Assembly: GCA_016206785.1 (NCBI GenBank)
Contig: JACQQV010000028.1
Span: forward strand, 5,438-69,437
DNA from: Candidatus Omnitrophota bacterium
Lineage (GTDB): Bacteria > Omnitrophota > Gorgyraeia > JACQQV01
Length of the DNA stretch: 64,000 nt
Direction: 5' to 3'
Positions 3 through 44,461 of the stretch are shown piece after piece; within the stretch, counting starts at the first letter, position 1, and each line of letters begins with the position of its first letter. Made by a program: the position numbers and the translations under genes. The notes under the pieces are model-generated. The model worked only from the letters and a program-made list of their open reading frames with translations, was not told the origin of the DNA and ran no database searches.

Positions 3-131
3 GTAGGCCTTCTGGGTGAACTGATTGTTCACGCATCGCACGAGAACCCCCTTTCTCCGGAAAGGTCTTGTGAGATGGATGCGCCAGTTGTGATCAATCA
101 ATCTGAGGTATTGGATACAGAGATTACATGA
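3..131 (+). CDS. 3' end of an upstream gene (partial, product unknown)
   Basis: Frame open from the window edge and ending ...VLDTEIT* with the TGA overlapping the ATG at 128 (ATGA junction); no recognisable motif. Confidence 0.2.
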   Translation, partial: VGLLGELIVHASHENPLSPERSCEMDAPVVINQSEVLDTEIT

Positions 132-1258
132 GAGTATTTGTTACCACAGGAGACAGAATTCATCCGATCAAAGGAGGGGGCGCGCTCAGGACAACGAAGA
201 TCGCCGGGGAATTATGGAGCCAGAGTCATGAAGTCACTCTGCTTGCACCTTCGGAGGGAGAAGGGTCATTCAATGGGATCAAGGTCATTTCGGTGCCTGA
301 GGTCACGCAGGAAAAGTCCATTATCTTGGGCCCCATTCTTTTTACGCTAACATCTTTCCTGGCCCTGTGCAAGAACAGAAACAAAATCGATCTTGTCATC
401 TCACACAATTCAGTTGCAGCAATACCCAGTTTGATTTTTACAAAAATATTTAGGAAGAAATTTGTTTTGGACATCACGGATATTCAAACTGAATATTTTA
501 AAGAGACCCGGAAAGGCTTCTTGTGGAGCGTGGCCGTATATTTCATGATCATGATAGAGGTGTGGCTCATCAAACATTCGGGCAGGGTTGTCGTGGTATC
601 TAAGATCATGAAAGATACCCTTGTCAGAAAGGGCGTTCCTTCCGAAAGAATATTTGTTGTCTACGACGGTGTAGAAACGGAAAAGTTCTCGCTTCCTAAG
701 AAGAAACAACCGCATCCTGTGATTATTCATCACGGAAGTATCAGTCCCCATGACGGTGTGGAGTATATCCCCTATTCTGCCGTTGAAGTTTTAAAAAAAT
801 ATCCAACCGCAAAATTTTACATCGTGGGCTCAGGAAATAGAATTCACGCTGTGAGAGAGATTGTCAAAAGATTCGACTTGGAACCCTCTTTCGTGTTTAC
901 AGGTTGGAAACCGTACGAAGAAATGAAAAGTTACTTACAAATTGCCGATATCGGCTTAATCACACGCCCCAACACACTGGCAAATAATGCTGTATTGACG
1001 TTAAAGCTTTTAGAATATTGGGCAAGTGGGACAGCCCCGATCGCTGCAAGATTGAAAGGCATCCAGGAAATATCAGAAGAAAACGAAAATGTTTTGTTTT
1101 TTACACCCGAGTCACCCCTTGAATTGGCCGGATGTATTATTCGCTTGATCGAAGATCCTTTACTCTTAGCGAGGATCCAAGGGAACGGACAGAAGGTCGC
1201 GCAAAGATTCGATTGGGGTAGTTTAATAAAAGAAATCGTTCACCTAAGTATTCACTAA
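128..1258 (+). CDS. glycosyltransferase, family 4-like (GT-B fold)
   Basis: 376 aa; C-terminal GT4-type nucleotide-sugar binding motif ...LEYWASGTAPIAARLKGIQEI...; sits first in a co-directional glycan gene array. Confidence 0.6.
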   Translation: MRVFVTTGDRIHPIKGGGALRTTKIAGELWSQSHEVTLLAPSEGEGSFNGIKVISVPEVTQEKSIILGPILFTLTSFLALCKNRNKIDLVISHNSVAAIPSLIFTKIFRKKFVLDITDIQTEYFKETRKGFLWSVAVYFMIMIEVWLIKHSGRVVVVSKIMKDTLVRKGVPSERIFVVYDGVETEKFSLPKKKQPHPVIIHHGSISPHDGVEYIPYSAVEVLKKYPTAKFYIVGSGNRIHAVREIVKRFDLEPSFVFTGWKPYEEMKSYLQIADIGLITRPNTLANNAVLTLKLLEYWASGTAPIAARLKGIQEISEENENVLFFTPESPLELAGCIIRLIEDPLLLARIQGNGQKVAQRFDWGSLIKEIVHLSIH

Positions 1259-1260
1259 AA

Positions 1261-2361
1261 ATGATGAGAATTCTACACGTTGTCGGTGCGCGTCCTAATT
1301 TCATGAAAATCGCACCCCTTCTTCCGGCATTCTCGAAATATCGGGGGGTGACCCAGTATCTCATCCATACGGGGCAGCATTACGACGATGAGATGTCGAA
1401 ACGGTTTTTCCTCGACCTGGATATCAAACCGCCCGACATTTTCCTGGGTGTGGGTTCTGGTTCACACGCGGAACAGACAGGGAAGATTATGATCGCTTTT
1501 GAAAAGGTGCTCTGCAGAGAAAAACCGGATTGGGTGGTCGTGATGGGCGATGTCAATTCAACACTCGCAGCGGCACTTGTCTGTGCAAAAGAAAGGGTTC
1601 GTCTTGCCCATGTGGAGGCCGGGCTTCGGAGCTTTGACAGAACGATGGCGGAAGAGGTCAACCGTATCGTAACCGATCGCCTGTCCAATGCACTTTTCAC
1701 GACCTCCGAAGAGGCCAATGAAAACCTGAAACGGGAAGGAATCTCCGAAGACAAAATATTTTTTGTCGGAAACATCATGATTGATTCCCTCGTGAGATTC
1801 CGTCAGAAAGCAGAAAATTCCCCTATTCTAAAGGATCTTCAGCTGGCACCCAAGACATATGCCGTGATGACGCTTCATCGGCCGACCAACGTCGATGAGG
1901 CGACCCCCCTTCGAAACATTACGCAGGCATTGAGGGAGCTCCAGCAGGAGATCCGCATTATTTTTCCTGTTCATCCCCGCTGCGCCAAGAACCTTGAGCG
2001 GTTAAACCTGAAAGGGGAGTTTTCCAAAATGAAAAATGTGACGCTTGTCAACCCGCTCGGCTATCTTGATTTCTTAAAACTCTCTTCCGCGTCCCTTTTT
2101 GTGATGACAGATTCCGGGGGCGTTCAAGAGGAAACTACATTTCTCGACGTCCCTTGTTTAACGTTGCGGGAGAATACGGAGCGGCCCGTCACCGTCACCC
2201 AGGGAACAAATGAAATCGTCGGAAATGATCCTGAGCGGATCGTCCGGATGAGCCGCCAGATCCTTCAAGGGAGAAGGAAGACCGGAAGAGTTCCCGATCT
2301 TTGGGACGGTCAGACCGCTGAGCGGATCGCCGCGATCCTTATGAATGGTAGCATCAAATGA
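1261..2361 (+). CDS. wecB: UDP-N-acetylglucosamine 2-epimerase (non-hydrolysing), WecB/MnaA family
   Basis: 366 aa; MRILHVVGARPNFMKIAPL...HTGQHYD...AHVEAGLRSFDRTMAEEVNR, the canonical UDP-GlcNAc 2-epimerase signatures. Confidence 0.9.
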   Translation: MMRILHVVGARPNFMKIAPLLPAFSKYRGVTQYLIHTGQHYDDEMSKRFFLDLDIKPPDIFLGVGSGSHAEQTGKIMIAFEKVLCREKPDWVVVMGDVNSTLAAALVCAKERVRLAHVEAGLRSFDRTMAEEVNRIVTDRLSNALFTTSEEANENLKREGISEDKIFFVGNIMIDSLVRFRQKAENSPILKDLQLAPKTYAVMTLHRPTNVDEATPLRNITQALRELQQEIRIIFPVHPRCAKNLERLNLKGEFSKMKNVTLVNPLGYLDFLKLSSASLFVMTDSGGVQEETTFLDVPCLTLRENTERPVTVTQGTNEIVGNDPERIVRMSRQILQGRRKTGRVPDLWDGQTAERIAAILMNGSIK

Positions 2362-3713
2362 CCAAACGGTTCACGAATATTCTCCTTTTTCTCCTTCTGC
2401 TTTCAGGGGGCTTGTTGGGGCTCGAGTGGATCGGCCCCTGGATCATCCTTCTGGGAGGAACTTTGATAGGTGGAGGAGTGATTGTGTGGAAGGTCCCCCC
2501 GGGAGAGAAGCGCTATGTGCTTGAAGTTTTTCTCGCCGCCGTTTTACTCCGCGTGTGTACGATTTTGCCTTTTTTCGTTCTCTCTTATACGGGTGTGGGA
2601 TTCCATCCCGGTTTCTTCTTCGCCTCAGACGGTTATGGATATCATGAAAACGGCTGGCAAATTGCACAGTTGTGGGAAAAAGGTCTTCTCATCACTCCCA
2701 AGTTACTCATCGGTTCATTCACAGGGACGATGCCCAGCCCCTATGAATTCTGGAATGCTTTTATCTATTCTTTCACCGGAAAAAGTCCTTTGTCTCTTTT
2801 CTTCGTGAACGCACTCGTTGGTGTATGGTCCTCCCTCTTTGTCTTCCTCTTTACAGAAAAGTTTTTTGGAAGAAGAGCTGCACGACTTGCGATGCTCTTT
2901 TCTGCCTTTTGGCCCTCTCTGCTCTTTTGGTCTATCCAGAATCTGCGTGATCCTATGGTCAATTTGGCCATTTTTCTTCTGATGTGGTCCGCCCTTGAAC
3001 TTCGTTACCGCTTGAGCGTTCGATTTATCTTCACAGGACTGATTTCGTCTTACGTTCTTTTCAAGTTCAGGATGCCCGTCTGTTTACTCATCCTTTTTCT
3101 CATCTTTATTTGGTTTTTAGGGACGAGTCAGTTCTACAGAAAGATGAAACTGCTTTTCATCGTTTTGCTCGTCTTTATCTCTGTAGCGCAAGGCCTGAAA
3201 TTCTGGAAGAACCTTGAGGGGGCGTTTAAGCAAAAGATGGCAAAGGCCAGTGTAGAAGCTTTTTATACCACAGATGTCTCTATTGCCCAGTGGGTCGATT
3301 ATCTCCGGACGGCCAGGGCAAGCGGAGGATCCGCATTTTTAAAGGGGGTTGATTTTACGAATCCCAAGCAGGCTATCGTTTATCTGCCCGCCGCGATGGG
3401 CTATGCCCTCTTTGCTCCCTTCCCATGGCAAGGGGGGAGCGGATCTTCTCTTCTGGGCGCCTTTGAGATGTCCATTCTTTACCTTTGCCTCCCTTTTATT
3501 CTGGGGGGGATTCGACATTCCCTGCGAGTGATGCGGGATCAGACTTTTCTCATCCTGCTCGTTTTCTCCTTTCTTTCCTTACTGTTGGCACTTATCGAAG
3601 GAAATGTTGGGACGCTCTTTCGACATCGTTCCATGATGCTCAGTTTCATCCTTATTTTTATAGCGGTGGGACTATCCCATCCCTCCAGAAAGGTTGCCCG
3701 TCAAAATGTCTGA
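2358..3713 (+). CDS. polytopic membrane protein, possibly a Wzy-like polymerase or O-antigen-ligase-like protein
   Basis: 451 aa with 10 or more hydrophobic helices and a large loop; no catalytic motif recognised; the call rests on context in the glycan cluster. Confidence 0.35.
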   Translation: MTKRFTNILLFLLLLSGGLLGLEWIGPWIILLGGTLIGGGVIVWKVPPGEKRYVLEVFLAAVLLRVCTILPFFVLSYTGVGFHPGFFFASDGYGYHENGWQIAQLWEKGLLITPKLLIGSFTGTMPSPYEFWNAFIYSFTGKSPLSLFFVNALVGVWSSLFVFLFTEKFFGRRAARLAMLFSAFWPSLLFWSIQNLRDPMVNLAIFLLMWSALELRYRLSVRFIFTGLISSYVLFKFRMPVCLLILFLIFIWFLGTSQFYRKMKLLFIVLLVFISVAQGLKFWKNLEGAFKQKMAKASVEAFYTTDVSIAQWVDYLRTARASGGSAFLKGVDFTNPKQAIVYLPAAMGYALFAPFPWQGGSGSSLLGAFEMSILYLCLPFILGGIRHSLRVMRDQTFLILLVFSFLSLLLALIEGNVGTLFRHRSMMLSFILIFIAVGLSHPSRKVARQNV

Positions 3714-5172
3714 TTTCTCACAAATGACCTTGCCGAGAGAGGAAATAGTGGGGCAATCGGCAGCCAGCCCCCTAGAGGAAGTCTCGGAGAAGAGAAGAAA
3801 GGAGGTCCTGCTTTTCTGCGACAAACTGGCCGACACCTATGATGACTGGCATTCGAAGAACCGGTATTATTACCGCGAAGTGGAATCTTTCTGTTCAGAT
3901 ATTGTCTCGAAGGAATCTCGTATCCTTGAGATCGGATGCGGGACAGGGGATCTATTAAACAGAATCGCCAAAGAAGACGGAATAGGCATAGACATCAGTC
4001 CTCGCATGATTTCACTGGCTTCGAAAAAATATCCCCACTTGAAACTTCAGGTATCCGATATTGAACACTTGGAAGAAAGAGATCCCTTTGACTACGTCAT
4101 CATGTCTCACCTGATGGAATTTATTCCGGATTTATGGGCGTTTCTTGCCGAGGTCAAGAAACATACCCATCCGGAGACGCGGCTCGTTATCTTAACCACC
4201 AATCCTTTGTGGGAACCGATCATGCGGCTTGGGGCGAAATGGAGATTACGGAGTCCCGAAACCATTCGGAACTTCATCACCCGAAGAGACCTCGTCAACA
4301 TTCTTGAGTTACTCGGGTATGAGGTTACCTCGAGCGGCTTTAGGATCTTTTTCCCGAAAAGAATCCCCTTCATTTCGTTTTGGTTGAATAAAATCTTGCC
4401 GCGCCTTCCTGTTGTCAATAACCTCTGCGCCCTTCAATTTATCATTGCGAAGCCCGAGTCGACGGAGAAGAAGGTGCAGGAACTCTCTTGTTCAGTCATC
4501 GTCCCTTGTTTCAATGAAGCGGAAAACATCGAGGTGTGCGTGAAGCGGATCCCGAAAATGGGGATCCGGACAGAGGTGGTGGTCGTGGACGACGGCTCAA
4601 CGGATGGTACAGGAGAGAGGGCCCGCCGCATCGAAGACCCCGAGAAGGAGGTTCAAGTCATTTCCTACAGTCCGAACAGGGGAAAGGCGAGTGCGGTCCG
4701 CACCGGCATCGAAGCAGCTGGGGGAGACGTCCTCATGATTCTGGATGCGGACATGGCGGTCATGCCTGAGGAGTTACCCCGATTCTTCAAGGTTCTTTCC
4801 GAAGGAAGGGCTGAGTTTGTGAACGGAACGCGGATGGTCTATCCCATGGCCTCCGGGGCAATGAAATTTCTCAATTTTTTGGGCAATAAAATATTCGGCA
4901 TCATTCTAAGTTTTATTATGGAACAGAGAAATACCGACACGCTGTGCGGCACCAAGGCCTTCTTTAAGAAACATTTCAGGTCCTTTGTGAAAGGGAAGGA
5001 TGCGTGGGGAGATTTCGATCTTTTGTTTGAGGCGGCCCGGAAAAGATTAAAGATGGCCGAACTTCCGATTCACTACACGGTTCGCGAAAAGGGGAAATCC
5101 AAGATGAAACCCCTTCGGGACGGCGCGTCGATTCTCAAAACCTGTTTTCACGGTCTCAAAGGTATTCACTAA
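3694..5172 (+). CDS. bifunctional class I SAM-dependent methyltransferase / family 2 glycosyltransferase fusion
   Basis: N-terminal half has MTase motif I ILEIGCGTGDLL; C-terminal half has GT2 signatures SVIVPCFNEAENI...VVVVDDGSTDGT...ILDADMA (DxD). Start could instead be the ATG at 3706. Confidence 0.75.
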   Translation: MPVKMSDFSQMTLPREEIVGQSAASPLEEVSEKRRKEVLLFCDKLADTYDDWHSKNRYYYREVESFCSDIVSKESRILEIGCGTGDLLNRIAKEDGIGIDISPRMISLASKKYPHLKLQVSDIEHLEERDPFDYVIMSHLMEFIPDLWAFLAEVKKHTHPETRLVILTTNPLWEPIMRLGAKWRLRSPETIRNFITRRDLVNILELLGYEVTSSGFRIFFPKRIPFISFWLNKILPRLPVVNNLCALQFIIAKPESTEKKVQELSCSVIVPCFNEAENIEVCVKRIPKMGIRTEVVVVDDGSTDGTGERARRIEDPEKEVQVISYSPNRGKASAVRTGIEAAGGDVLMILDADMAVMPEELPRFFKVLSEGRAEFVNGTRMVYPMASGAMKFLNFLGNKIFGIILSFIMEQRNTDTLCGTKAFFKKHFRSFVKGKDAWGDFDLLFEAARKRLKMAELPIHYTVREKGKSKMKPLRDGASILKTCFHGLKGIH

Positions 5173-5187
5173 GGAGGCCTCTAGGAA

Positions 5188-5904
5188 GTGCAAACGGCAC
5201 AGGCAAACCCGGTCAGAGTAGAGGGGGAAATTCCTTATTGGACAACCGTTGCGGGGAGGCGCCGCGTCCTTCGCAGGGCCTTTTACCTTCGCACACTAGG
5301 GGGTATTGAAAAAGGGAAGGCGGTTTTGGAGGTGGGGTGTGGGGTTGGTACGTTTACAGAAAAATTGACAGAAGAAGGGGTACGCCTAACCGCCATCGAC
5401 ATTCTTCCGGACTTTGTGCAGAAGGCGTATCGCAGAATCAACCAACAGGCACATTGCGTCGTCGCAGACGCCATGGTGACACCTTTCTGCGCAGAAACGT
5501 TTGATGCCGTCGTGGGGAGTTCTATCCTACATCATTTGAATGCCGAAGCGGCGTTGAAGGAATTTTGGCGGGTGCTCCGTCCGGGAGGTCGCTTGGCATT
5601 GGCAGAGCCCAACATGCTTAATCCTCAGATCTTTGTGATGAAGAATGTGCCCGCGGTGAAACGATGGATGGGGGAAGATCCTGATGAAACAGCCTTTATC
5701 CGTTGGGGTCTTGCGCATACCCTGCAGAGGATCGGGTTTCAAGACATTCGCATCTTTCCCTATGATTATCTTCATCCTTCTACGCCTGCTTTCTTCATTC
5801 CCTTCGTTGAGAGGATGGGACAATGGTTTGAATGCATTCCGGTCCTCCGTGAATTTGCAGGTTCACTCATGATTGTCGCTAAGAAAGGGGATGTCTCTTC
5901 ATGA
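5188..5904 (+). CDS. class I SAM-dependent methyltransferase
   Basis: GTG start preceded by AGGAGG; motif I LEVGCGVGTFTEKL and post-I LRPGGRLALAEP. Confidence 0.75.
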   Translation: MQTAQANPVRVEGEIPYWTTVAGRRRVLRRAFYLRTLGGIEKGKAVLEVGCGVGTFTEKLTEEGVRLTAIDILPDFVQKAYRRINQQAHCVVADAMVTPFCAETFDAVVGSSILHHLNAEAALKEFWRVLRPGGRLALAEPNMLNPQIFVMKNVPAVKRWMGEDPDETAFIRWGLAHTLQRIGFQDIRIFPYDYLHPSTPAFFIPFVERMGQWFECIPVLREFAGSLMIVAKKGDVSS

Positions 5905-6590
5905 AATTGAGCATTGTGATGCCTGTCTATAATGAGAAAGAGACGATACAAAAGATCATTGAAAAGGTTAAACAGGTCCCTCTTGACCTTGAAAAGGAGA
6001 TCATTATCGTCGATGACGGCTCAACCGATGGAACGCGGCAGTTCTTGGAGGCGATGCCTCAAGACAATGTCAAAATTATTTACCACAGCAAGAACATGGG
6101 AAAGGGAGCCGCACTGCGAACAGGTTTTGCTCAGGCGGGGGGCGACGTCGTGATGACACAGGACTCCGATCTTGAATATGATCCTGCGGATTATGCCATC
6201 CTCCTCGACCCGATTCTCCGAGGTGCAGCGGATGTCGTCTATGGTTCGAGGCTTTCAGGCGGTAGGCCCCAGCGGGTCTATCTTTTCTGGCACAAGATGG
6301 GGAATAATTTTCTTACCTTTATTACCAATCTCCTTTATAACACAACCCTCACGGATATGGAAACAGGGTACAAGGTGTTTAGGAAAGAGGTCGTCCAGAG
6401 ACTTCGGTTGCGGTGTAAGGGGTTTTCCATCGAGCCCGAAATCACCGCCAAGGTGTTCAAGCAGAAGGTCCGTGTCTATGAAGTCCCTATTGCCTACTAC
6501 GGCCGATCCTATCAGGAGGGGAAAAAGATTACGTGGCGGCATGGCTTAAGCGCCCTTTTGACGCTCATCTGGTTCCGCTTTTTTGATTAA
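5901..6590 (+). CDS. family 2 glycosyltransferase, Dpm1/ArnC-like polyprenyl-phosphate sugar synthase
   Basis: MKLSIVMPVYNEKETI...IIVDDGSTDGT...TQDSDLEYDP (DxD) with a short C-terminal hydrophobic tail, typical of Dpm1/ArnC/GtrB-type GT2. Confidence 0.75.
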   Translation: MKLSIVMPVYNEKETIQKIIEKVKQVPLDLEKEIIIVDDGSTDGTRQFLEAMPQDNVKIIYHSKNMGKGAALRTGFAQAGGDVVMTQDSDLEYDPADYAILLDPILRGAADVVYGSRLSGGRPQRVYLFWHKMGNNFLTFITNLLYNTTLTDMETGYKVFRKEVVQRLRLRCKGFSIEPEITAKVFKQKVRVYEVPIAYYGRSYQEGKKITWRHGLSALLTLIWFRFFD

Positions 6591-6608: not shown

Positions 6609-7244
6609 ATGGTCAAGGCTTTCTCTGCTTATTATGAAGAACAAATTTTGCAACTGATCCAAAAAATGAGATTGCCAAAAGGAGATAGAGTATTAGATGC
6701 AGGTTGTGGATCCCGTGCACGATTTCAATCGGCCATTGAGTCGCTCGGATATTCTTATGTTGGCGTCGATCGAGAGCCCCCGCAAGGGAATAAGAGTACA
6801 CTCCGCTTCGATCTCAACCAAGGCTTTCCGACCATCGACTTTGATCATTTAATCTGTATCAATAGCCTGCAGACCTTTGAAAAAGGTGAGGATTTTATGG
6901 AACGGGCGGCCAAAGTGGTGAAGAAGGGTGGAAAGGTATTTTTGACCCTTCCCAACCGAAAAAGTTTCCACTATCACGTATGGAGATGGATGGATCGTTA
7001 TGTCTATCACGATTATTCGTTCATGAATCCTCTGACAGAACGGAGCGTCGCGGCCTTCTTTGAGAAACAGGGGTTTCGTCTCCTTGAAGAAGGGGGAGTG
7101 ATGGCTTTTCCAAATCAGGTGGGGCTTATTTCCCCTTCTTTTCTCCAGCCCCTATGGATTCGAGCGGATCACTGGCTTGACCGGCTTTTTAAAAGGAAGG
7201 CCGATCGATATTCCTATACCTACCTTATTCTCATGAGGGAGTAA
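6609..7244 (+). CDS. class I SAM-dependent methyltransferase-like protein
   Basis: Motif I VLDAGCGSRARF; about 211 aa Rossmann-type MTase architecture. Confidence 0.55.
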   Translation: MVKAFSAYYEEQILQLIQKMRLPKGDRVLDAGCGSRARFQSAIESLGYSYVGVDREPPQGNKSTLRFDLNQGFPTIDFDHLICINSLQTFEKGEDFMERAAKVVKKGGKVFLTLPNRKSFHYHVWRWMDRYVYHDYSFMNPLTERSVAAFFEKQGFRLLEEGGVMAFPNQVGLISPSFLQPLWIRADHWLDRLFKRKADRYSYTYLILMRE

Positions 7245-14072: not shown

Positions 14073-14073
14073 G

Positions 14074-21208: not shown

Positions 21209-21263
21209 TCCACTCTCCCAACTGGTTCAAGGATTTCTCGCGAGCTTCCTGATCGCGTTTTTG

Positions 21264-25131: not shown

Positions 25132-25133
25132 TC

Positions 25134-29312: not shown

Positions 29313-29322
29313 GGAGAATAAC

Positions 29323-36687: not shown

Positions 36688-37796
36688 AAATTTTGGTGAC
36701 AGGAGGAGCCGGGTTTATCGGGTCCCATCTTGTAGATGCCCTTGTAACACGTGACCATGAGGTCGTTGTCTACGATGCCTTTGTGGAGCAGGTGCATGGA
36801 CGGAAAAAACCGGATTACCTCAATCAGGAAGCAACCTATGTCAAAGAAGACGTTCGAAACCGGGAAGCCTTGAAAAAGGTGATCAGAACCTCTGACCTCA
36901 TTTTTCATGAGGCCTCCGCCGTCGGCGTGGGACAGTCGATGTATCAGGTTTCAGAATATGTAGAGGCCAATACTCAGGGAACTGCCGTTCTCCTGGATAT
37001 CCTGGTGCGCGAGAAAACGAAGGTCAAAAAGGTAGTGATTGCAAGTTCTATGAGTATTTATGGGGAAGGGCGTTATCTCTGCTCCGCCTGCGGAAAGATT
37101 GCCCCTTCTCCCCGCTCAGAGAAGCAATTGCAAAAAGGGGAGTGGGAGATGCACTGCCCCGCCTGCAACGCAAAGGTGAGGGCCATTCCAACCGATGAAT
37201 CGAAACCTCTGGAATCGACCTCTCTGTACGCAATGACAAAACGCCACCAGGAAGAGATGACCCTTCTCCTTGGAAAGACCTATCGTCTACCAGTCGTTGC
37301 GCTCCGTTACTTTAATGTCTACGGGCCTCGACAGGCCCTTTCCAACCCCTATACGGGGGTCTGCGCAATTTTTTCAAGCCGCGTCAAGAACGGGAAACCT
37401 CCTCTCGTTTATGAGGATGGACTTCAGAGTCGTGATTTCGTTCATGTGGAAGACATCGTCCGTGCGAATCTTTTGGTGATGGAAAAGAAAGAGGCAGACT
37501 ACCAGGTGTTTAATGTTGGAAGCGGAAAGGCCGTTTCGATTCTCGAGATCGCAAATGCCTTGATCCGTCTTTATGGAAAAGCCCTTTCTCCACAAGTGGT
37601 CGGAAAATACCGCAGCGGAGACATCCGACACTGTTTCGCCGATATCTCCCGCATCAGTTCTCTGGGGTATCGCCCCAAATGGTCTCTGCAGGAGGGGCTC
37701 CAGGATCTGGTCCGGTGGGGAGCGACGCAGAAAGCGGTTGACCGGAGCGAGATTGCAGATCGAGAACTCCTGAAGAGGGGGCTCAGGCAGCCGTGA
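36684..37796 (+). CDS. NAD-dependent epimerase/dehydratase with an inserted Cys4 zinc-ribbon
   Basis: [15 protein letters not shown]; YAMTK (YxxxK); about 35-aa insert CSACGKIAPSPRSEKQLQKGEWEMHCPACNAKV between the SSxxxYG block and the active-site Tyr. Confidence 0.7.
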   Translation: MKILVTGGAGFIGSHLVDALVTRDHEVVVYDAFVEQVHGRKKPDYLNQEATYVKEDVRNREALKKVIRTSDLIFHEASAVGVGQSMYQVSEYVEANTQGTAVLLDILVREKTKVKKVVIASSMSIYGEGRYLCSACGKIAPSPRSEKQLQKGEWEMHCPACNAKVRAIPTDESKPLESTSLYAMTKRHQEEMTLLLGKTYRLPVVALRYFNVYGPRQALSNPYTGVCAIFSSRVKNGKPPLVYEDGLQSRDFVHVEDIVRANLLVMEKKEADYQVFNVGSGKAVSILEIANALIRLYGKALSPQVVGKYRSGDIRHCFADISRISSLGYRPKWSLQEGLQDLVRWGATQKAVDRSEIADRELLKRGLRQP

Positions 37797-38902
37797 AAAG
37801 AATCCCACTAGTCGATTTAAGGGCCCAATATCGCCTTCTCGAGAGAGACATTCGGCATGCGCTACGGGTCATTTTCAGCGACATGAAACTTTTTCTCGGT
37901 GAGAATGTGAAGGCATTTGAGAAGGAATTTGCCGCGTTTTGTGGTGTTCCTTATGCCATCGGTGTCGGATCAGGGACGGAAGCGCTTCATTTTGCCCTCC
38001 GCTCACTCGGCGTTGGAGAGGGAGACAGGGTCATCACCGTTCCCTTTACATTTATTGGAACGGTTGAAGCGATCCTCCAAGCAGGGGCAAAACCCATTTT
38101 TGTCGATATCGATCCTTTCTCTCATACCATCGATTCCTCGAAGGTTGAAGAAAAAATTACCAAAAAGACAAAGGCGATCATCCCCGTTCACCTCTATGGA
38201 CAGCCGTGCGAGATGGCCCCACTACTCCGTCTTTCCAAAAAATATGGCGTCCCGATCCTTGAGGATGCGGCACAGGCCCATGGCGCGATGGAGAACGGAG
38301 AGAAAGTCGGCTCCATCGGGAAGGCCGGTTGTTTCAGTTTTTATTATGCCAAGAACCTCGGTGCGTATGGAGAAGGGGGGATGGTGGTGACGCGGGACAA
38401 ACGGATTGCGGAGAGAATCCGTCTTCTCAGGAATCATGGCGCAGCGACCAAATATGCCCATATCCTCCCCGGTTTTAATGGAAGGCTTGATGAAATTCAG
38501 GCAGCGGTGTTGAGGATTAAATTGAGGCGGCTTTCGCAATGGAACGCCTTGAGGAGACAACATGCAGGGCGTTATCGGGAGGCCTTTGCGGATCTGCCGA
38601 TCGCCCTTCCCGCCGAAGGGGCTCAAAAATATCATGTCTATCATCTTTTTGTCATCCGGACCCGCAAAAGGGACGCCCTCAGAAAATATCTCCTTGACCG
38701 GGACATTGAAACGGGCGTTCATTATCCGATCCCTCTTCACCTGCAGCAGGCCCTCCGCGCCTTCCGGTTTCACCGGGGCGATTTTCCAGAGAGCGAAAGG
38801 GCTGCTTCAGAGGTTCTTTCGTTGCCGATCTATCCGGAACTGACGTCCAACGATCAGGGACGGATCATTCGAGGGGTGAGGCGCTTCTTTAAGAAATGGT
38901 GA
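37793..38902 (+). CDS. DegT/DnrJ/EryC1/StrS family PLP-dependent sugar aminotransferase
   Basis: FEKEFAAFCGVPYAIGVGSGTEALHFAL...ITVPFTFIGTVEAI...VDID...DAAQAHG...FSFYYAKNLGAYGEGG, canonical DegT blocks. Confidence 0.85.
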   Translation: MKRIPLVDLRAQYRLLERDIRHALRVIFSDMKLFLGENVKAFEKEFAAFCGVPYAIGVGSGTEALHFALRSLGVGEGDRVITVPFTFIGTVEAILQAGAKPIFVDIDPFSHTIDSSKVEEKITKKTKAIIPVHLYGQPCEMAPLLRLSKKYGVPILEDAAQAHGAMENGEKVGSIGKAGCFSFYYAKNLGAYGEGGMVVTRDKRIAERIRLLRNHGAATKYAHILPGFNGRLDEIQAAVLRIKLRRLSQWNALRRQHAGRYREAFADLPIALPAEGAQKYHVYHLFVIRTRKRDALRKYLLDRDIETGVHYPIPLHLQQALRAFRFHRGDFPESERAASEVLSLPIYPELTSNDQGRIIRGVRRFFKKW

Positions 38903-38903
38903 T

Positions 38904-39662
38904 ATGGGAAAAATTCCTTTGAGTGTTGTGATTCTGGCGAAGAATGAGGAGAGGGGGATCGCCGATGCCCTTCAAAGCGTCGCTTGGGCCGAGGACGTTG
39001 TGGTCATTGATGATATGAGTAACGACCGGACACCGGAGATCGCAAAACGCCACGGCGCCCGTGTCATTCAAAAGAGGATGGAACTTGAAGGAAAACACCG
39101 CAACGATGCCTATGCCCTTGCGAAACATGAATGGGTTCTTTCTCTGGACGCAGACGAAGAGGTTTCTCCCGCGCTTAAGGCGGAGATCGCAACGGTTTTA
39201 AGCGACGATACCTACGCCGGATATTCGATTCCGCTCCGGAATTATATCGGAGATCAGTGGGTTCGTCATGGCGGTTGGTATCCTGCGGGTAAACTCCGAT
39301 TGTTTCGGAAAGAGAAATTCCGCTATGAAGAGGTGGGGGTCCATCCACGGGCCTTCTGTGACGGAAAGGTGGGAACCCTGAAGGGAGACATCCTCCACAA
39401 GGGGTATCCTGATTTTGGTCACTTCTTGGAGAGTCTCAACCGCCAGACCACGTTGGAGGCGGAGAAATGGTTTCAAGACAAAAGAAAGATGAATTTTTTC
39501 CTCTCTTTCTACAGGGCACTCGACCGTTTCATCCGGACCTATTTTCTGAAGAGGGGATTTCTGGATGGTTTTATCGGGTTCATGGTAGCGCTTTTCGCGT
39601 TTCTGTATCAAATGATGAGCTATGCAAAGTATAGAGACTTAAAACGACGAGACAAACGGTGA
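38904..39662 (+). CDS. family 2 glycosyltransferase (WaaE/KdtX-like or ArnC-like)
   Basis: LSVVILAKNEERGI...VVVIDDMSNDRT...LSLDADEEV (DxD) with a C-terminal amphipathic or hydrophobic tail. Confidence 0.7.
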   Translation: MGKIPLSVVILAKNEERGIADALQSVAWAEDVVVIDDMSNDRTPEIAKRHGARVIQKRMELEGKHRNDAYALAKHEWVLSLDADEEVSPALKAEIATVLSDDTYAGYSIPLRNYIGDQWVRHGGWYPAGKLRLFRKEKFRYEEVGVHPRAFCDGKVGTLKGDILHKGYPDFGHFLESLNRQTTLEAEKWFQDKRKMNFFLSFYRALDRFIRTYFLKRGFLDGFIGFMVALFAFLYQMMSYAKYRDLKRRDKR

Positions 39663-41737
39663 TAACGGCATTGGGTCACGTACTTCTTTTTTCCGGGATG
39701 AACGCGATGGTCGCCGCAACGACTTTTACTCTGGCAAAGTCTCTCTTTTCTTTGAAGGGAGGGAGAGACCTTCTCCTCGCAAGTTTCCTTTTGTATTTGG
39801 CAGAGATCTTCACTGTGGAACTTTTCTGGAGCACCTGGAATCGGATGCGCCTCCTCCCCATTCTTGGGACCGTTTCCCTCCTTTTTCTAGTCACGATTCT
39901 TTTTGGGCGGAGAAAAGCGGAGTCTTCCATTTCCAAGGAGTTTCAAGAGTGTCTTGGATGGATCACTCGGAATCGCATACTTCTTTTCACGGCATCGGTC
40001 CTTTTAGGTTTTTTGGTTACCAAGGTCATTTACAACCTCCGATATCCGCCGCTTGGCTGGGATTCGATCGGCTACCACCTCGTTTTCCCCGTGGAGTGGT
40101 TGAAACGGGGGAGAATTTGGTTTTATCAAGTCGTTTTTTCCGATCCTTCCCCCTCTTATTATCCTTTTATGGGAGGCCTCTATTATTTCTGGCTTCTCCT
40201 CCCGTTCCGAAATGCTTTCATGGCAGACCTCGGCCAACTTCCGTTTTATCTGGCTCTTCTCCTCGCGACCTATGGATTTTCTCGACGGATCGGCCTCGAT
40301 CGAGAGATCTCTCTCTATGGAGCTTTTCTATTCGGCCTGATCCCCAATGTCTTAAAACAGGTGGAAATCAGTTATGTCGATTTAATCATCGCCTCTTACT
40401 TTATGAGTGCTCTCTATTTTCTCTCTCTTCTAAGCCGGGAATGGAATTTTTCCCACCTCTTCTTTGTCTCACTTGCTTCAGGACTTTTAATCGGTACGAA
40501 AACCCACGGTCTCCTATGGTTCGCCCTCCTCTGTCCCTATTTTTTGGGAGTCGCGGTCAAGCACTTCCGTCGAAAGGGGGAAACCTTCCTTTTATATGGA
40601 GCCACTCTCCTCGGCGTGATACTTCTTTTCGGAGGGTTGAGTTATATACGCAATTATCTTTTGACCCAAAACATCACATATCCGATCTCTCTTCAGATAG
40701 GCCCTTATTTGGCAAAAGGTATCATTTCCTATGCGGATTATCGCTATAATGCGCATGGCGCTTTCCGTTGGGAGGAATTTTACTTTCATAACGGATTGGG
40801 GGTACAGCTGTTGCTTCTCATCACACCGGGACTTTTTCTGGCCCTATGGATGGAATTTTGGAAGAAAAAAGCGGACCTTGAAAGGGTGTACTGGGTTTCT
40901 CTCCCTTTTTTAATCTTTCTCGTTTTTTTGTTCGTAAATCCCTTTCCGGGGAACGAGCGTTATATCTATCATGGTCTTGCCTTGGGTTGTGTCGTTGCTC
41001 TCTCCGTTTTTGATCGATTGTTTCCGAAAAAAGTCGTACGGATTTTTGTCTTGGTCTGCGTGCTCGGTTCCGCCGCAGAACTTGCAGGCCATTGGGAACT
41101 TTTCTTTTCGCTGCTGGGCGTGGGACTTTTCGTGGGATGGGGAGAGATGTATCGTCGGGGTTTCCTGAGCCGGCGCCTTTCCAAATGGCCGGTCGTTTCC
41201 CTTTGCTCCATACTCGGAATCGCTGCCTTAATTTTCCTAGAAATCCTGTATCGGCAAAACGAGTTTAACCTGTATCCCCGTAGTCAATTCTCAAATTATG
41301 ATACCCGTCTTGCTGAAGCATGGAAATGGGTAAATGAGCACACCTCTTTAACCGGCTCGAAAGTTGCTTATGCGGGTTCCTGCCTTCCTTTCCCCCTTTA
41401 TGGAACCGGTCTTAAAAATGACGTCTCTTATGTCACCGTAAATGGAATACCTCCCAATCTTCATCTTTGCGACGGAGATTACCGTCGGGGGGCACGCTAT
41501 GAAACGTGGGAGAGAATGCTTCTTGAAGGGAAGATAGACCTCCTCATTGTTTATGATATGGTCTACCGACGGAACCTACCTCCTTTTAATCCGCGAAGGG
41601 TTGGTGTGGAAGAATATCCGATCGGTGTTTTTCCGTTGGAGGATGAATGGGCGAGGAATCATCCCGAACGACTGAAACCTGTTTTTCAAAATGAAAGGGT
41701 CCATATTTATACTGTTCAGAAAGAAGGGTTGACATGA
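39659..41737 (+). CDS. large polytopic membrane protein, putative GT-C-fold (ArnT/PMT-like) glycosyltransferase
   Basis: 692 aa; about 12 TM helices followed by a soluble domain of about 150 aa; placed immediately after a GT2 polyprenyl-P-sugar-synthase-like gene, as in ArnC/ArnT pairs. Confidence 0.4.
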   Translation: MITALGHVLLFSGMNAMVAATTFTLAKSLFSLKGGRDLLLASFLLYLAEIFTVELFWSTWNRMRLLPILGTVSLLFLVTILFGRRKAESSISKEFQECLGWITRNRILLFTASVLLGFLVTKVIYNLRYPPLGWDSIGYHLVFPVEWLKRGRIWFYQVVFSDPSPSYYPFMGGLYYFWLLLPFRNAFMADLGQLPFYLALLLATYGFSRRIGLDREISLYGAFLFGLIPNVLKQVEISYVDLIIASYFMSALYFLSLLSREWNFSHLFFVSLASGLLIGTKTHGLLWFALLCPYFLGVAVKHFRRKGETFLLYGATLLGVILLFGGLSYIRNYLLTQNITYPISLQIGPYLAKGIISYADYRYNAHGAFRWEEFYFHNGLGVQLLLLITPGLFLALWMEFWKKKADLERVYWVSLPFLIFLVFLFVNPFPGNERYIYHGLALGCVVALSVFDRLFPKKVVRIFVLVCVLGSAAELAGHWELFFSLLGVGLFVGWGEMYRRGFLSRRLSKWPVVSLCSILGIAALIFLEILYRQNEFNLYPRSQFSNYDTRLAEAWKWVNEHTSLTGSKVAYAGSCLPFPLYGTGLKNDVSYVTVNGIPPNLHLCDGDYRRGARYETWERMLLEGKIDLLIVYDMVYRRNLPPFNPRRVGVEEYPIGVFPLEDEWARNHPERLKPVFQNERVHIYTVQKEGLT

Positions 41738-42777
41738 AAATTTTGATTACAGGGGGGGCAGGACTTGTCGGGAGTCATGCGGCCGAATATTATGCCAAGA
41801 AAAAATGGAAGGTGATTGTTCTGGACAACCTTGCCCGGTCCAAACTCTTTAAGGCGGAACGGGAGAGTGTCGAGTACAACTGGAAATACCTTGCCCCATT
41901 TCGGAACATCCTACGCATTAAAGGAGATGTTCGAAACCGCAGTGACCTGAAACGCGCACTCGGCAGGGGGGTAGATGTCTTGTTGCACGCGGCGGGACAG
42001 CCCGGTGTCGGATTCTCCATCTCTGATCCTCGGGAAGATTTTAGCATTAATGCTTTTGGAACGCTCAATGTCCTCGAGGAGCTTAGAAAGGTATCTCCGA
42101 GGGCTGCGTTCCTTTTCTGCTCGACGAACAAAATTTATGGTGAGAATGTCGATGCCGTTCCTTTGAGAAAAACAAAAACACGATACTGTTTTGTGGGACG
42201 CAAAGGAATTGATGAGACATTCCCAATCGATCTGGCTGCCCATACGCCCTATGGGGTGAGTAAATATGTGGCAGACCTCTACACGCAGGAGTACGGTGTA
42301 CTTTACAAAATGAAAACGGGGGTTTTCCGAATGAGTTGCATCTATGGAACCCGTCAATTTGGGTTTGAGGATCAGGGGTGGGTTGCTCACTTTGTCATTC
42401 AGGCGGTGACAGGTCGGCCTCTCACGATTTTTGGAGACGGAAAGCAGGTGAGAGATGTTCTCTATGTGGAGGATCTTGTAAAGGCCTATGATCGCTTTAT
42501 CCAGAGCCCCTTGAAACAGGGTGTTTTTAATATCGGAGGGGGTGCGAACCACACGACATCTCTTCTGGAGCTCTTGGATCTCCTGAAAGAACAGCTCCCT
42601 TTCCGCTCGCCTGTTTCCTTCAGCAACTGGAGGGCGAGCGATCAGAAGGTCTATATTTCGGACATCGGAAAGATAAAGCGTCAACTGGGATGGTCACCCC
42701 GCATCGGCTTTCAAGAAGGGTTGGAGAGATTGATTCAATGGGTGGAAAAGAACCGGATGCTCTTTGAAAAACGATGA
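41734..42777 (+). CDS. NAD-dependent epimerase/dehydratase (CDP-paratose-2-epimerase- or heptose-epimerase-like)
   Basis: MKILITGGAGLVGSHAAEYY; YGVSKYVADLY (YxxxK); lies next to gmhB and the GT9 gene. Confidence 0.6.
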   Translation: MKILITGGAGLVGSHAAEYYAKKKWKVIVLDNLARSKLFKAERESVEYNWKYLAPFRNILRIKGDVRNRSDLKRALGRGVDVLLHAAGQPGVGFSISDPREDFSINAFGTLNVLEELRKVSPRAAFLFCSTNKIYGENVDAVPLRKTKTRYCFVGRKGIDETFPIDLAAHTPYGVSKYVADLYTQEYGVLYKMKTGVFRMSCIYGTRQFGFEDQGWVAHFVIQAVTGRPLTIFGDGKQVRDVLYVEDLVKAYDRFIQSPLKQGVFNIGGGANHTTSLLELLDLLKEQLPFRSPVSFSNWRASDQKVYISDIGKIKRQLGWSPRIGFQEGLERLIQWVEKNRMLFEKR

Positions 42778-43343
42778 AGAAGAAACCAAAATATATCTTT
42801 TTGGACCGGGACGGTGTCATCAATGTCGATGCCGGTAATGGGTATGTGGACAACTGGAAAAAATTCCGATTTCTACCGGGGTCCCTAAAGGCCCTCAGGC
42901 TTTTAAGAGAAAATGGGTACAAGGTCGTGGTGGTTTCTAATCAGGCGGGAGTCGCCAAAGGATTTTATTCTTTGAAAGACCTTCATGAGATGACGCAGCG
43001 GATTAAGCGGGCCGTCGAGGGACATGGGGGAAAACTCTCCGCGGTCTATTACTGTCCTCACCGACGGGAAGATCATTGCAGTTGCCGGAAGCCCCGGACA
43101 AGTCTTTTTAGACAAGCAAAGAAGAGATTCGGGATGAGATTTCGGGAAACCATTCTGGTGGGAGATTCCATGGTCGATGTTGCGGCAGGCAAAGCCCTCC
43201 GATGCAAAACCATCCTTGTCCTTTCTGGAAGAGAAAAACTTTCCCGCAGGTCAGCATGGAAAGTCAAGCCCGACGGCGTTCAAAAGAATCTCCTAGAGGC
43301 GGTCCGCTGGATTCTTCAGAGGGGGCATCGTTCCAAGCCATGA
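42774..43343 (+). CDS. gmhB: D-glycero-D-manno-heptose 1,7-bisphosphate phosphatase (HAD-IIIA)
   Basis: IFLDRDGVIN (DxDGT-like HAD motif I), VVVSNQAGVAKG, CPHRREDHCSCRKP zinc-binding loop, GDSMVD motif IV. Confidence 0.8.
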   Translation: MKKKPKYIFLDRDGVINVDAGNGYVDNWKKFRFLPGSLKALRLLRENGYKVVVVSNQAGVAKGFYSLKDLHEMTQRIKRAVEGHGGKLSAVYYCPHRREDHCSCRKPRTSLFRQAKKRFGMRFRETILVGDSMVDVAAGKALRCKTILVLSGREKLSRRSAWKVKPDGVQKNLLEAVRWILQRGHRSKP

Positions 43344-44461
43344 AAATCGTGATTGTCTATGCGTCGAGCGGGGCGGGTCATCAGAAATCCGCCGAGGCGC
43401 TTTTCAGAGTTGCCAAGGGACGACCAGGCCTCAGCGCCCTTCTCATCGATTCTCTCGATTATACAACACCTCTTTTCCATCTTCTCTATCCGAGGGCCTA
43501 TCTATTTCTCGTGAGATACCTTCCGACCGTGTGGGGATTTTTCTATGACGGACTCAACTTCGCCTTTATCGGCCACATCCTTAAATACCTTCGGCGGTTC
43601 CTCAATGCCATGAACGGAGGGGTCCTTGAGAAATTTTTCCTCTCCGAAAATCCGGATGTCATTGTCTCCACCCATTTTTTTGCAAGTGAGGTGGCCTCCA
43701 CCCTCAAGGAGAGGGGAAGACTTCATGCGCGGCTGTTTACGGTTGTGACGGATTTCAGCATTCATTCTGTCTGGGTCTCTCCCTTGACAGACGGATATGT
43801 GGTAGGTTCCAAGGATACGGAGGAGGCGCTTATCCGTCGGGGAGTTCCCAAAGAAACGATCTCTATCTTAGGAATTCCAATTGATCCTGTGTTTGAAAGG
43901 GAGGAGGATCGGGCGAATCTTTCACGGCAACTTGGCATCTTTCCTGAAAAATTCACTGTGCTTGTGGCGAGCGGCGGTTTCGGCGTCGGCCCGATTGAGA
44001 GTCTTGTCTCCCGGCTTTCCCGTGATGAGCGATTACAACTTTTGGTCGTCTGTGGCCACAACCGCCCCCTCTACAAACGCCTTACGGAAAGGACGGAAAG
44101 AATCAATCACCGTGTGAAACTCTTTGGATTCGTTCACAACATCCATGAACTGATGTCTGTAAGTGACTGCATGGTGAGTAAGTCGGGGGGGCTCACGATG
44201 TCCGAAGCCCTCGTCAAAAAACTCCCTTCCTTTATTCTTTATCCCATCCCGGGTCAAGAGACGGGGAATCGGGATGTCCTTGTCCGTCACCGAAGCGCCA
44301 TCACCGTGAGGAATATTCACGATCTTGAGAAGCGGTTTGAAGATCTTGACCGCCTTCAAGAGGAACTTGCGGGAGTGAGACGCCATATCGAGGCCTTCAG
44401 AAAAATCCAGGCAGCCCAACGCGTCATCGACCACGTCATTTCCAAAGAGGAAAAACGATGA
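43340..44461 (+). CDS. MGDG-synthase-like / processive diacylglycerol glycosyltransferase (GT28 family)
   Basis: MKIVIVYASSGAGHQKSAEAL N-terminal MGDG-synthase-type motif; C-terminal GT28 (MurG-like) region ...SKSGGLTMSEALVKKLPSFILYPIPGQE. Confidence 0.7.
   Translation: MKIVIVYASSGAGHQKSAEALFRVAKGRPGLSALLIDSLDYTTPLFHLLYPRAYLFLVRYLPTVWGFFYDGLNFAFIGHILKYLRRFLNAMNGGVLEKFFLSENPDVIVSTHFFASEVASTLKERGRLHARLFTVVTDFSIHSVWVSPLTDGYVVGSKDTEEALIRRGVPKETISILGIPIDPVFEREEDRANLSRQLGIFPEKFTVLVASGGFGVGPIESLVSRLSRDERLQLLVVCGHNRPLYKRLTERTERINHRVKLFGFVHNIHELMSVSDCMVSKSGGLTMSEALVKKLPSFILYPIPGQETGNRDVLVRHRSAITVRNIHDLEKRFEDLDRLQEELAGVRRHIEAFRKIQAAQRVIDHVISKEEKR

Follow-up and report, generated by a model that had tools for sequence, protein, structure and literature searches.

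The cells of the Omnitrophota are very small, and the phylum is widespread and for the most part uncultivated; to our knowledge no surface-glycan structure has been described for any of its members. The Arn pathway (ArnB, ArnC, ArnA, ArnD and ArnT), one of the systems that the locus described here resembles in part, carries out the undecaprenyl-phosphate-linked modification of lipid A with aminoarabinose. The lipopolysaccharide (LPS) core cluster of Pseudomonas includes a carbamoyltransferase, WapO (PA5005), the probable source of the carbamoyl group on heptose II of that core (PMC8005017). Within the Omnitrophota themselves, a 2026 preprint describes a hypervariable O-antigen/capsule cassette with heptosyltransferase II and many glycosyltransferases, which varies between strains (bioRxiv 10.64898/2026.05.20.726742). 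The present study concerns a glycan-biosynthesis locus of Candidatus Omnitrophota bacterium on contig JACQQV010000028.1 (GenBank assembly GCA_016206785.1); the window is the entire stretch analysed, 64,000 nucleotides (positions 5,438 to 69,437 of the forward strand), and the glycan genes occupy its first 44 kb.

On balance, we read this block as the principal locus for envelope glycans in a diderm bacterium of Candidatus Omnitrophica, most likely an LPS locus in which conserved core-type modules surround a variable cassette of O-unit or exopolysaccharide-like character; the genes probably do not all serve a single polymer. It is a locus of an ordinary kind, very large and carried by an unusual organism (an uncultivated groundwater bacterium), and it is both larger and more composite than the initial annotation of this DNA had proposed. 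That annotation described a single-strand glycan super-cluster of about 44 kb, which is borne out: the glycan genes are the first 39 open reading frames (ORFs; g1-g39, positions 128-44461, + strand), and 38 of them carry a glycan-related domain according to Pfam, NCBIfam, PDB matches or fold search. The sole exception is g28 (31599-31844), which encodes an 81-residue LexA-type DNA-binding protein. Domain assignment of each ORF, the check suggested at the time, thus preserved the broad glycan reading and altered several individual calls. The proposal that the block encodes one heavily decorated heteropolysaccharide now appears unlikely, in view of the genes for 3-deoxy-D-manno-oct-2-ulosonic acid (Kdo) just upstream, and of a related contig that keeps the flanks while the centre is not found in its compared parts.

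The position of the Kdo genes was established from a contig (L084) that is 100% identical to window positions 1-1307 and continues at least 10 kb further upstream on the same strand. Position 128 therefore reflects the window edge, which cuts the locus, and only the right end of the proposed extent, at 44461, is a real boundary. Read toward the window, L084 encodes a truncated PMT_2 protein, a Kdo-transferase-family protein, KdsB, KdsC, a GT4-ligase fusion, two more PMT/PMT_2 proteins and an ArnC-like GT2 that ends within window positions 1-131. KdsB and KdsC score 298 bits (cut-off 255) and 132 bits (cut-off 107), respectively. The WaaA-like protein (435 residues) matches Kdo-transferase as its only family, at 164 bits compared to a cut-off of 438, which makes it a family-level call. 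A Kdo transferase of this standing and the CMP-Kdo supply enzymes KdsB and KdsC are thus present directly upstream, as in an LPS inner-core region, so that the locus spans at least 54 kb and is joined to inner-core genes, neighbours that point towards LPS. The three PMT_2 proteins of L084 are ArnT/PMT-like enzymes of the GT-C fold class, and together with three in the window they bring the number of GT-C enzymes to six within about 54 kb. The full ArnC-like GT2 (329 residues) aligns to positions 3-294 of the 316-position ArnC model with 215 bits (cut-off 529). The fusion protein (L084 3502-6036, 844 residues) combines GT4 with an adenylate-forming (PaaK/CapK-like) ligase domain and lies between kdsC and two GT-C genes. 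Short contigs identical to window sequence are present in three sequencing runs.

The composite structure is evident from a related 51.9-kb groundwater contig (ERZ978390 k127_592047), of which about 35 kb was compared (its start, L089, and a further part, L086), with positions 13341-29817 (16.5 kb) outside the comparison. In L086 the orthologues of g25-g42 occur in the same order with 55-88% identity, except for the DegT aminotransferase gene g34, which has no orthologue there, a single-gene difference within an otherwise collinear block. Orthologues of g2, g3 and g6 stand at the start of the relative's contig, that of g6 (69% identical) adjoining that of g3. For g7-g24 no orthologues were found in the compared parts, which yielded only distant, paralogue-level matches (25-38% identity) to glycosyltransferase, GT-C and short-chain dehydrogenase/reductase (SDR) genes. 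Because the flanks are syntenic and the centre was not found in the compared parts, the locus looks composite rather than like one polymer pathway. At the sequence level, conserved flanks around a centre not found in the compared parts would resemble the arrangement of many O-antigen loci.

The features are given below in order, with position, strand, assignment and principal match (TM, transmembrane; NDP, nucleoside diphosphate; SAM, S-adenosylmethionine; HexNAc, N-acetylhexosamine).

1..131, +, ArnC-like GT2 (polyprenyl-phosphate sugar synthase type), 3' end, starting upstream of the window (L084)
128..1258, +, g1, GT4-type glycosyltransferase (Glyco_transf_4, Glycos_transf_1)
1261..2361, +, g2, WecB, non-hydrolysing UDP-GlcNAc 2-epimerase (TIGR00236, 350 bits, cut-off 210)
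2358..3713, +, g3, GT-C, GT39/PMT_2-like, about 9 or more TM-like segments (weak PMT_2 match; homologues match PF13231)
3706..5172, +, g4, fusion of N-terminal SAM methyltransferase and C-terminal GT2, AglJ/DPM1/ArnC-like (Methyltransf_23 55-213, Glycos_transf_2 267-425)
5188..5904, +, g5, SAM methyltransferase (Methyltransf_11/25)
5901..6590, +, g6, small GT2, polyprenyl-phosphate sugar synthase type (Glycos_transf_2, 124 bits; best NCBIfam matches AglJ, PpgS and ArnC, all under cut-off)
6609..7244, +, g7, SAM methyltransferase (Methyltransf_23)
7245..8372, +, g8, predicted divergent NodB-fold (CE4-like) polysaccharide deacetylase (fold search; locus tag HY590_04165)
8369..9394, +, g9, SGNH/GDSL hydrolase or acyltransferase (Lipase_GDSL_2, 65.8 bits; N-terminal hydrophobic TM-like segment 7-25)
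9391..10890, +, g10, Wzx-type flippase of the MOP superfamily (Polysacc_synt_3, 82.7 bits, and Polysacc_synt, 82.6 bits, both above cut-off; HfsF-like, 95 bits)
10891..12777, +, g11, AsnB-like, without N-terminal catalytic Cys (Asn_synthase, 63 bits; N-terminus MSALFG)
12774..14072, +, g12, GT4-type glycosyltransferase (Glyco_transf_4)
14074..15915, +, g13, fusion of TuaH-like GT4-type domain, one TM-like segment and DUF218 (Glycos_transf_1; TuaH-like, 101.7 bits; SanA/ElyC-type DUF218, 100 bits at residues 480-630 of the longer ORF)
15908..17146, +, g14, GT-C membrane glycosyltransferase (PMT_2, 40.9 bits, cut-off 26.1)
17116..19086, +, g15, glutamine-dependent AsnB-type amidotransferase (TIGR01536, 502 bits, cut-off 267; N-terminus MCGI)
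19083..20252, +, g16, GT4 glycosyltransferase (Glycos_transf_1, 138 bits)
20249..21208, +, g17, SDR related to UDP-glucuronate decarboxylases, i.e., UXS and the ArnA C-terminal domain (human UXS1, 217 bits; ArnA, about 120 bits)
21183..23039, +, g18, WecA/MraY-type polyprenyl-phosphate HexNAc-1-P transferase (PNPT) with C-terminal TM/CoA_binding_3 region (Glycos_transf_4, PF00953, 122 bits, cut-off 27; CoA_binding_3, 79 bits; WecA model, 110 bits, under cut-off)
23036..24226, +, g19, GT4-type glycosyltransferase (Pfam domain search)
24223..25131, +, g20, RmlD-family reductase, first copy (TIGR01214, 258.7 bits, cut-off 224)
25134..26222, +, g21, GT-B glycosyltransferase, only GT1/GT4 C-terminal domain detected (Glyco_trans_1_4, 47.7 bits)
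26212..26667, +, g22, divergent RmlC-like cupin, NDP-sugar epimerase or isomerase (dTDP_sugar_isom, 57.7 bits; PDB 3ejk, 75.6 bits)
26660..27403, +, g23, RmlA-like glucose-1-phosphate thymidylyltransferase (NTP_transferase, 202 bits; TIGR01207, 253 bits, cut-off 360)
27400..28410, +, g24, RmlB, dTDP-glucose 4,6-dehydratase (TIGR01181, 432.5 bits, cut-off 365)
28407..29312, +, g25, RmlD, second copy (TIGR01214, 268 bits, cut-off 224)
29323..30276, +, g26, Rmd-like GDP-4-keto-6-deoxy-sugar reductase (PDB 2pk3, 311 bits; GDP-heptose 4,6-dehydratase 7us5, 248 bits)
30277..31578, +, g27, NDP-sugar 6-dehydrogenase, UDP-ManNAc dehydrogenase (WecC/Cap5O) type (TIGR03026, 448 bits, above cut-off)
31599..31844, +, g28, LexA-type N-terminal DNA-binding domain alone (LexA_DNA_bind, 54 bits)
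31841..32776, +, g29, UDP-glucuronate decarboxylase, Uxs (human UXS1, 362 bits, full length)
32781..34484, +, g30, NodU/CmcH-type O-carbamoyltransferase (Carbam_trans_N, 157 bits; Carbam_trans_C, 230 bits)
34481..35572, +, g31, GT9, heptosyltransferase family (Glyco_transf_9, 103 bits, cut-off 22)
35590..36687, +, g32, GT4 glycosyltransferase (Glycos_transf_1, 125 bits)
36684..37796, +, g33, SDR, 4-epimerase-like, with an insertion of about 35 residues splitting the match in two (best PDB matches UDP-hexose/UDP-uronate 4-epimerases)
37793..38902, +, g34, DegT/ArnB/PseC-type sugar aminotransferase (DegT, 404 bits; PseC, 273 bits, and ArnB, 237 bits, both under cut-off)
38904..39662, +, g35, small GT2 with C-terminal hydrophobic TM-like segment 219-237 (Glycos_transf_2, 62 bits)
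39659..41737, +, g36, predicted GT-C-fold membrane glycosyltransferase, 692 residues (fold search; locus tag HY590_04305)
41734..42777, +, g37, CDP-tyvelose 2-epimerase-like SDR (PDB 9rl0, 257 bits; 1orr, 221 bits)
42774..43343, +, g38, GmhB-type heptose 1,7-bisphosphate phosphatase (NF006506, 179.9 bits, just over the cut-off of 178)
43340..44461, +, g39, GT28/MGDG-synthase-like, last glycan gene (MGDG_synth, 104 bits; NF010135, 213 bits, cut-off 500)
44458..48088, +, family-4 uracil-DNA glycosylase, PriA and Fmt, non-glycan, linked to the cluster by 4-nt overlaps

By these assignments the window contains seven GT4-type, three GT2, one GT9, one GT28-like and three GT-C enzymes, and one PNPT. 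The single GT9 and GT28 enzymes had been counted correctly; the minimum of eight GT4 and the four GT2 and two GT-C enzymes of the earlier count became seven, three and three, respectively. WecB, the Wzx flippase and the WecA-type initiating transferase were all confirmed at the family level. The Wzy-like membrane protein was not: the protein in question, g36, has a GT-C fold and homologues that match PMT/PMT_2, which rules it out as Wzy, and g3 is ruled out as well, its homologues being PMT_2/GT39 proteins. The five multi-TM proteins are thus Wzx, the PNPT and the three GT-C enzymes (g3, g14 and g36), which leaves none as Wzy. Pfam scans found no Wzy_C-family protein (Wzy/WaaL), Wzz, Wza/Wzc or ABC exporter in the cluster, and no Wzz-type polysaccharide co-polymerase or Wza/Wzc among the 54 window ORFs or in the Pfam lists for the L084 genes. 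Of the components that characterize a Wzx/Wzy locus, the initiating transferase (g18) and the MOP flippase (g10) are therefore present, and the Wzy polymerase and Wzz/Wza/Wzc were not found. The fusion in g18 of PNPT with CoA_binding_3 was considered as a novelty and rejected: among the 150 best representatives (clustered at 50% identity), the majority have a length of about 580-650 residues and align over nearly the full query. Some g18 relatives reach about 930-975 residues, and one 1110; the C-terminal TM and CoA_binding_3 region resembles the non-catalytic N-terminal half of WbaP/WcaJ.

The g36 protein has no Pfam or NCBIfam match, and only 10 homologues were found; both of the taxon-labelled ones are from Omnitrophica/Omnitrophota, and two match PMT_2 or PMT. 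Its AlphaFold (AF2) model (predicted TM-score, pTM, 0.83) consists of about 22 helices, with no strands, as far as residue 534, and of a C-terminal domain (549-686) in which helices and strands are mixed. The top 17 Foldseek matches in the PDB are all GT-C enzymes (probability 0.99-1.00), among them STT3 (the best), ArnT (TM-score 0.54), PglB, AglB, DPY19, AftD and ALG9. Conservation among the homologues marks the invariant D135 and D241 as candidate catalytic residues. On the strength of the model, we assign g36 to a rare GT-C family for which there is no Pfam model. A member of this family adjoins a small GT2 in all five loci examined (g35-g36 in the window). A carbamoyltransferase is found in four of the five, with a gene cut by the contig end in L091 as perhaps another, and a GT9 likewise in four; the fifth locus (L087) is a short contig that ends before the positions of both. 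In three distant loci of the family a Wzy_C-family gene lies beside the GT9, as in core/ligase regions. Distant Omnitrophota loci also have small SxtJ-like and DUF5989 proteins after the carbamoyltransferase (L088 19335-19907; L090 3915-4484; L091 1082-1655), which the window and its close relative lack.

The sugar-nucleotide genes were assessed in the same manner. Of the rfbCABD set for dTDP-L-rhamnose, RmlB (432 bits) and RmlD (259 and 268 bits) exceed the cut-offs of their models and RmlA does not, nor does RmlC: g22 scores 38.8 bits against TIGR01221 (cut-off 155.75) and is only a distant cupin relative. The additional RmlD-like and Rmd-like reductases (g20 and g26) were upheld, as was the DegT aminotransferase. 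The dehydrogenase g27 is closer to UDP-ManNAc dehydrogenases (PDB 4r16, 245 bits; Cap5O, 242 bits) than to UDP-glucose dehydrogenase (145 bits). In the proposed conversion of UDP-GlcA to UDP-xylose by a dehydrogenase and Uxs, the Uxs (g29) therefore stands and the dehydrogenase appears to be of the UDP-ManNAc type, which leaves Uxs with no obvious local source of UDP-GlcA; judged by sequence, the UDP-ManNAc type would fit the presence of WecB. A heptose module of GT9, GmhB and an epimerase had also been suggested. GT9 and GmhB hold at the family level, and the module is reduced to these two since the epimerase, g37, is tyvelose-epimerase-like (60.7 bits against the HldD model, cut-off 274.6). 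Against the NCBIfam models of heptosyltransferases I, II and III, g31 falls below every cut-off, the best being heptosyltransferase II (106 vs 134.6 bits). Among the enzymes of the nucleotide-heptose pathway (GmhA, HldE or HddA/HddC, GmhB, HldD), only GmhB was found in the window.

The decoration enzymes largely agree with what had been predicted. The three methyltransferase domains, the NodU-type carbamoyltransferase and the SGNH protein were confirmed at the family level, as were both AsnB-like proteins, of which only g15 bears the glutamine amidotransferase catalytic Cys2; g11 is probably not glutamine-hydrolysing, given its start without Cys2 and its weak glutaminase-domain match. A further decoration enzyme, absent from the earlier gene list, is g8. 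It has no Pfam or NCBIfam match, and a search of the PDB with a profile built from 28 homologues gave no match; some of the homologues are named polysaccharide deacetylase or match PF01522. Its AF2 model (predicted local distance difference test, pLDDT, 90; pTM 0.90) has polysaccharide, peptidoglycan and chitin deacetylases as top PDB folds (probability 1.0), and D11, H91 and H93 are invariant and H95 nearly so. The modelled fold thus identifies g8 as a predicted CE4-like deacetylase. At the end of the cluster, g39 resembles UgtP-type diglucosyl-diacylglycerol synthases and is kept in the related contig; from its sequence, it may make a membrane glycolipid instead of serving the polysaccharide. 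The equally unlisted g28, whose LexA-type domain lacks a peptidase domain, lies between the dehydrogenase g27 and Uxs g29. It has an orthologue at the same position in L086 (3060-3305, 70% identical), and may be a regulator inside the cluster.

The layout of the region is uniform in orientation, with 54 consecutive ORFs on the + strand (128-59771). With start codons chosen by hand from the candidate starts, 19 of the 38 junctions inside g1-g39 are 4-nt ATGA/GTGA overlaps, 25 overlap in one way or another, the widest gap is 20 nt, and the non-coding spacers total 90 nt across 44 kb. The overlaps that had been reported throughout the cluster are thus present at half of its junctions and are not specific to it: the junctions 39-40, 40-41 and 41-42, which lead into udg-priA-fmt, are likewise 4-nt overlaps, and the co-directional overlapping layout extends through these and further housekeeping genes up to 59771. 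Since the pattern runs on into non-glycan genes, tight packing and strand bias are a property of the whole region and not a mark of the cluster, and they probably reflect a compact genome rather than special regulation. The reported lack of detectable terminators agrees with our counts, in which terminator-like sites are not enriched over shuffled sequences (38 vs 27.4 +/- 5.9; 30 vs 26.9 +/- 5.0) and those of the cluster fall within coding sequence. Likewise, neither the scanned + strand ORFs of the window nor the Pfam lists of the 10-kb upstream stretch include a transposase or integrase domain, in line with the earlier statement that none flanks the cluster. Scans of the window detected no tRNA, Rfam family or long or notable repeats. 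The GC content of the cluster is 0.48-0.50, compared to 0.52 in the neighbouring housekeeping genes.

Beyond the cluster, the first gap of more than 50 nt (48089-48148) overlaps the best promoter-like match of the window, a sigma-70-like site (48076-48103, +; TTGTAA, 16-nt spacer, TATAAT, upstream TG) that begins in the last codons of fmt. It is followed by two tandem paralogues (48149-49210 and 49176-50189, +) of the galactose-1-phosphate uridylyltransferase/HIT type, which also resemble DUF4921/DUF4931; gap-pgk-tpi-secG come shortly after them. The only convincing intergenic terminator-like hairpin (53641-53670, +; 13-bp stem, then a T run) lies after secG. The sole large gene on the - strand (60074-63841), located after the 54 + strand ORFs, encodes a 1255-residue RHS-repeat protein, in whose C-terminal part Pfam recognised no toxin domain.

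The assembly that these genes would support can be outlined from family membership, bearing in mind that many of the scores lie under equivalog cut-offs. The RmlA-like enzyme, RmlB, the divergent RmlC-like cupin and the two RmlD copies would supply dTDP-L-rhamnose, and WecB with the WecC-type dehydrogenase would supply UDP-ManNAc and UDP-ManNAcA (the N-acetylmannosaminuronic acid form). Uxs and the second UXS/ArnA-like enzyme (g17) could provide a pentose or 4-keto-pentose from UDP-GlcA made elsewhere, the Rmd-like enzyme a GDP-6-deoxy sugar, and DegT an amino sugar. The chain would be started on undecaprenyl phosphate by the WecA-type transferase and extended in the cytoplasm by the seven GT4-type enzymes; candidate decorations would be introduced by the methyltransferases, the Cys2-bearing AsnB amidotransferase, the carbamoyltransferase, the CE4-like deacetylase and the SGNH enzyme. 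Wzx would then flip the undecaprenyl-linked unit across the membrane, and on the periplasmic side the GT-C enzymes may attach further sugars by an ArnC/ArnT-like route, using polyprenyl-phosphate sugars from the adjoining small GT2s as donors. A carbamoylated heptose-type core is the probable product of GT9 and GmhB together with the carbamoyltransferase next to them. The polymerase and ligase functions would not be encoded in this locus.

Three other interpretations deserve consideration. The whole 44 kb could be a singly transcribed Wzx/Wzy-dependent pathway for a single decorated heteropolysaccharide (O-antigen or capsule), as suggested by the single strand, the overlapping junctions, terminator-like signal not above chance, and the presence of a PNPT initiator, Wzx, many glycosyltransferases and sugar-nucleotide genes. 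Such a pathway is nevertheless unlikely: Wzy, Wzz, WaaL and export machinery are absent from the cluster and the proposed Wzy is a GT-C enzyme, the overlaps that run on into udg, priA and fmt show that packing defines no functional unit, the relative keeps the flanks and not, in its compared parts, the centre, and Kdo genes lie immediately upstream. It is slightly less likely again that we are dealing with a protein-glycosylation or S-layer-glycan locus, in which PMT_2/GT39-like GT-C enzymes transfer polyprenyl-phosphate sugars onto secreted or surface proteins and the remaining genes build the glycan. The three window and three upstream GT-C enzymes do match PMT/PMT_2, g3 is named a GT39 family protein by NCBI, the small GT2s match best to archaeal AglJ and to dolichyl-phosphate hexose transferases, and an oligosaccharyltransferase, STT3, comes first among the fold matches of g36. 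However, PMT_2 is also the family of ArnT, the neighbours are Kdo genes, GT9 and GmhB, and the locus has no gene for an S-layer or acceptor protein; the TM-scores of g36 to STT3 and ArnT are alike and low (0.4-0.54), so that its acceptor is not readable from the fold.

The central cassette alone might be viewed as an exopolysaccharide system of the PEP-CTERM/exosortase type. For several genes the best NCBIfam matches are indeed of the XrtA type (g15 to TIGR03108, 613.6 bits; g16 to TIGR03088, 185.5 bits; g1, g12 and g19 to TIGR04063), and the C-terminal region of g18 matches TIGR03013, not as its best match. Yet every XrtA-family score lies under the curated cut-off (for example, 613.6 vs 816.9 bits for g15), and genes for exosortase, a PEP-CTERM protein, Wza and Wzc were not found in the window or the 10 kb upstream, which makes this the least probable of the three. 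The favoured reading, an LPS locus with core-type flanks and a variable centre, has its own difficulties. The 64-kb window contains neither lpx, WaaL, Wzy and Wzz nor GmhA, HldE and HldD, and these are missing as well from the Pfam families listed for the 10-kb stretch upstream; with no lpx, waaL or wzy visible the link to LPS rests on the Kdo neighbours and on GT9/GmhB. WaaA, GT9, the ArnC-like enzyme, DegT and RmlA are family-level assignments only, below NCBIfam equivalog cut-offs. The variability of the centre applies to the compared parts of the relative, positions 13341-29817 lying outside them, and would be an apparent one to that extent. PMT_2-family GT-C enzymes also glycosylate proteins, and the best matches of several central genes, below cut-off as they are, belong to PEP-CTERM/XrtA exopolysaccharide families.

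Taken as an LPS locus, the corrected gene map predicts envelope sugars that include Kdo and a heptose-type core, perhaps carbamoylated, besides rhamnose, a pentose or amino-pentose, ManNAcA (or the amide of it) and methylation. It further draws attention to a GT-C family that is rare and has a constant GT2 partner, in what is otherwise a standard, very large polysaccharide locus. Three points stand out: the abundance of GT-C enzymes, the rarity of the g36 family and the lack of a polymerase and a ligase in the locus. One could speculate, at odds about as long as those of protein glycosylation, that in this lineage a large part of the outer LPS glycan is assembled in the periplasm by means of the large GT-C set, with one GT-C enzyme taking the role of polymerase or ligase. 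If this were true of the window organism and its close relative, whose loci carry Wzx and neither Wzy nor WaaL, it would represent a new variant of O-chain and core assembly.

Comparison with the known systems places the locus among them as follows. Like the Wzx/Wzy O-antigen (rfb) clusters, it contains a WecA-type initiator, Wzx, many GT4 and GT2 enzymes, rml genes, a WecB and WecC-type pair and DegT, its GC content is slightly lower than that of the housekeeping neighbours, and its flanks are conserved around a centre not found in the compared parts of the relative. Unlike them, it lacks Wzy, Wzz and WaaL, has three GT-C enzymes in the window and three upstream, and extends over at least 54 kb contiguous with Kdo genes rather than alongside a separate waa locus. 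Wzc, O-antigen ligase, an LPS exporter and AlgI/AlgJ all belong to the Omnitrophota cassette of the preprint and were not seen in the present locus; the two share the phylum, the groundwater habitat and polysaccharide genes, a likeness by description and not by sequence. In relation to the Arn pathway, ArnE/F and an ArnA formyltransferase domain are absent (Fmt being the only formyltransferase in the window), the components lie dispersed across 40 kb, and the equivalog models all score under cut-off (ArnB 237 vs 631, ArnC 215 vs 529 and ArnA 143 vs 777 bits). As in that pathway, ArnC-like small GT2s adjoin ArnT/PMT_2-like GT-C enzymes, and the locus has a decarboxylase of UXS/ArnA-like type, an aminotransferase like DegT/ArnB and an enzyme with the NodB fold. 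The Pseudomonas LPS core (waa) cluster with WapO differs from the locus in that heptose kinases, GmhA, HldE and HldD are absent here, and GT9 and GmhB score at family or borderline level. By analogy, the two may nevertheless be comparable, in that both place a carbamoyltransferase beside a GT9 heptosyltransferase-family gene and a GT4.

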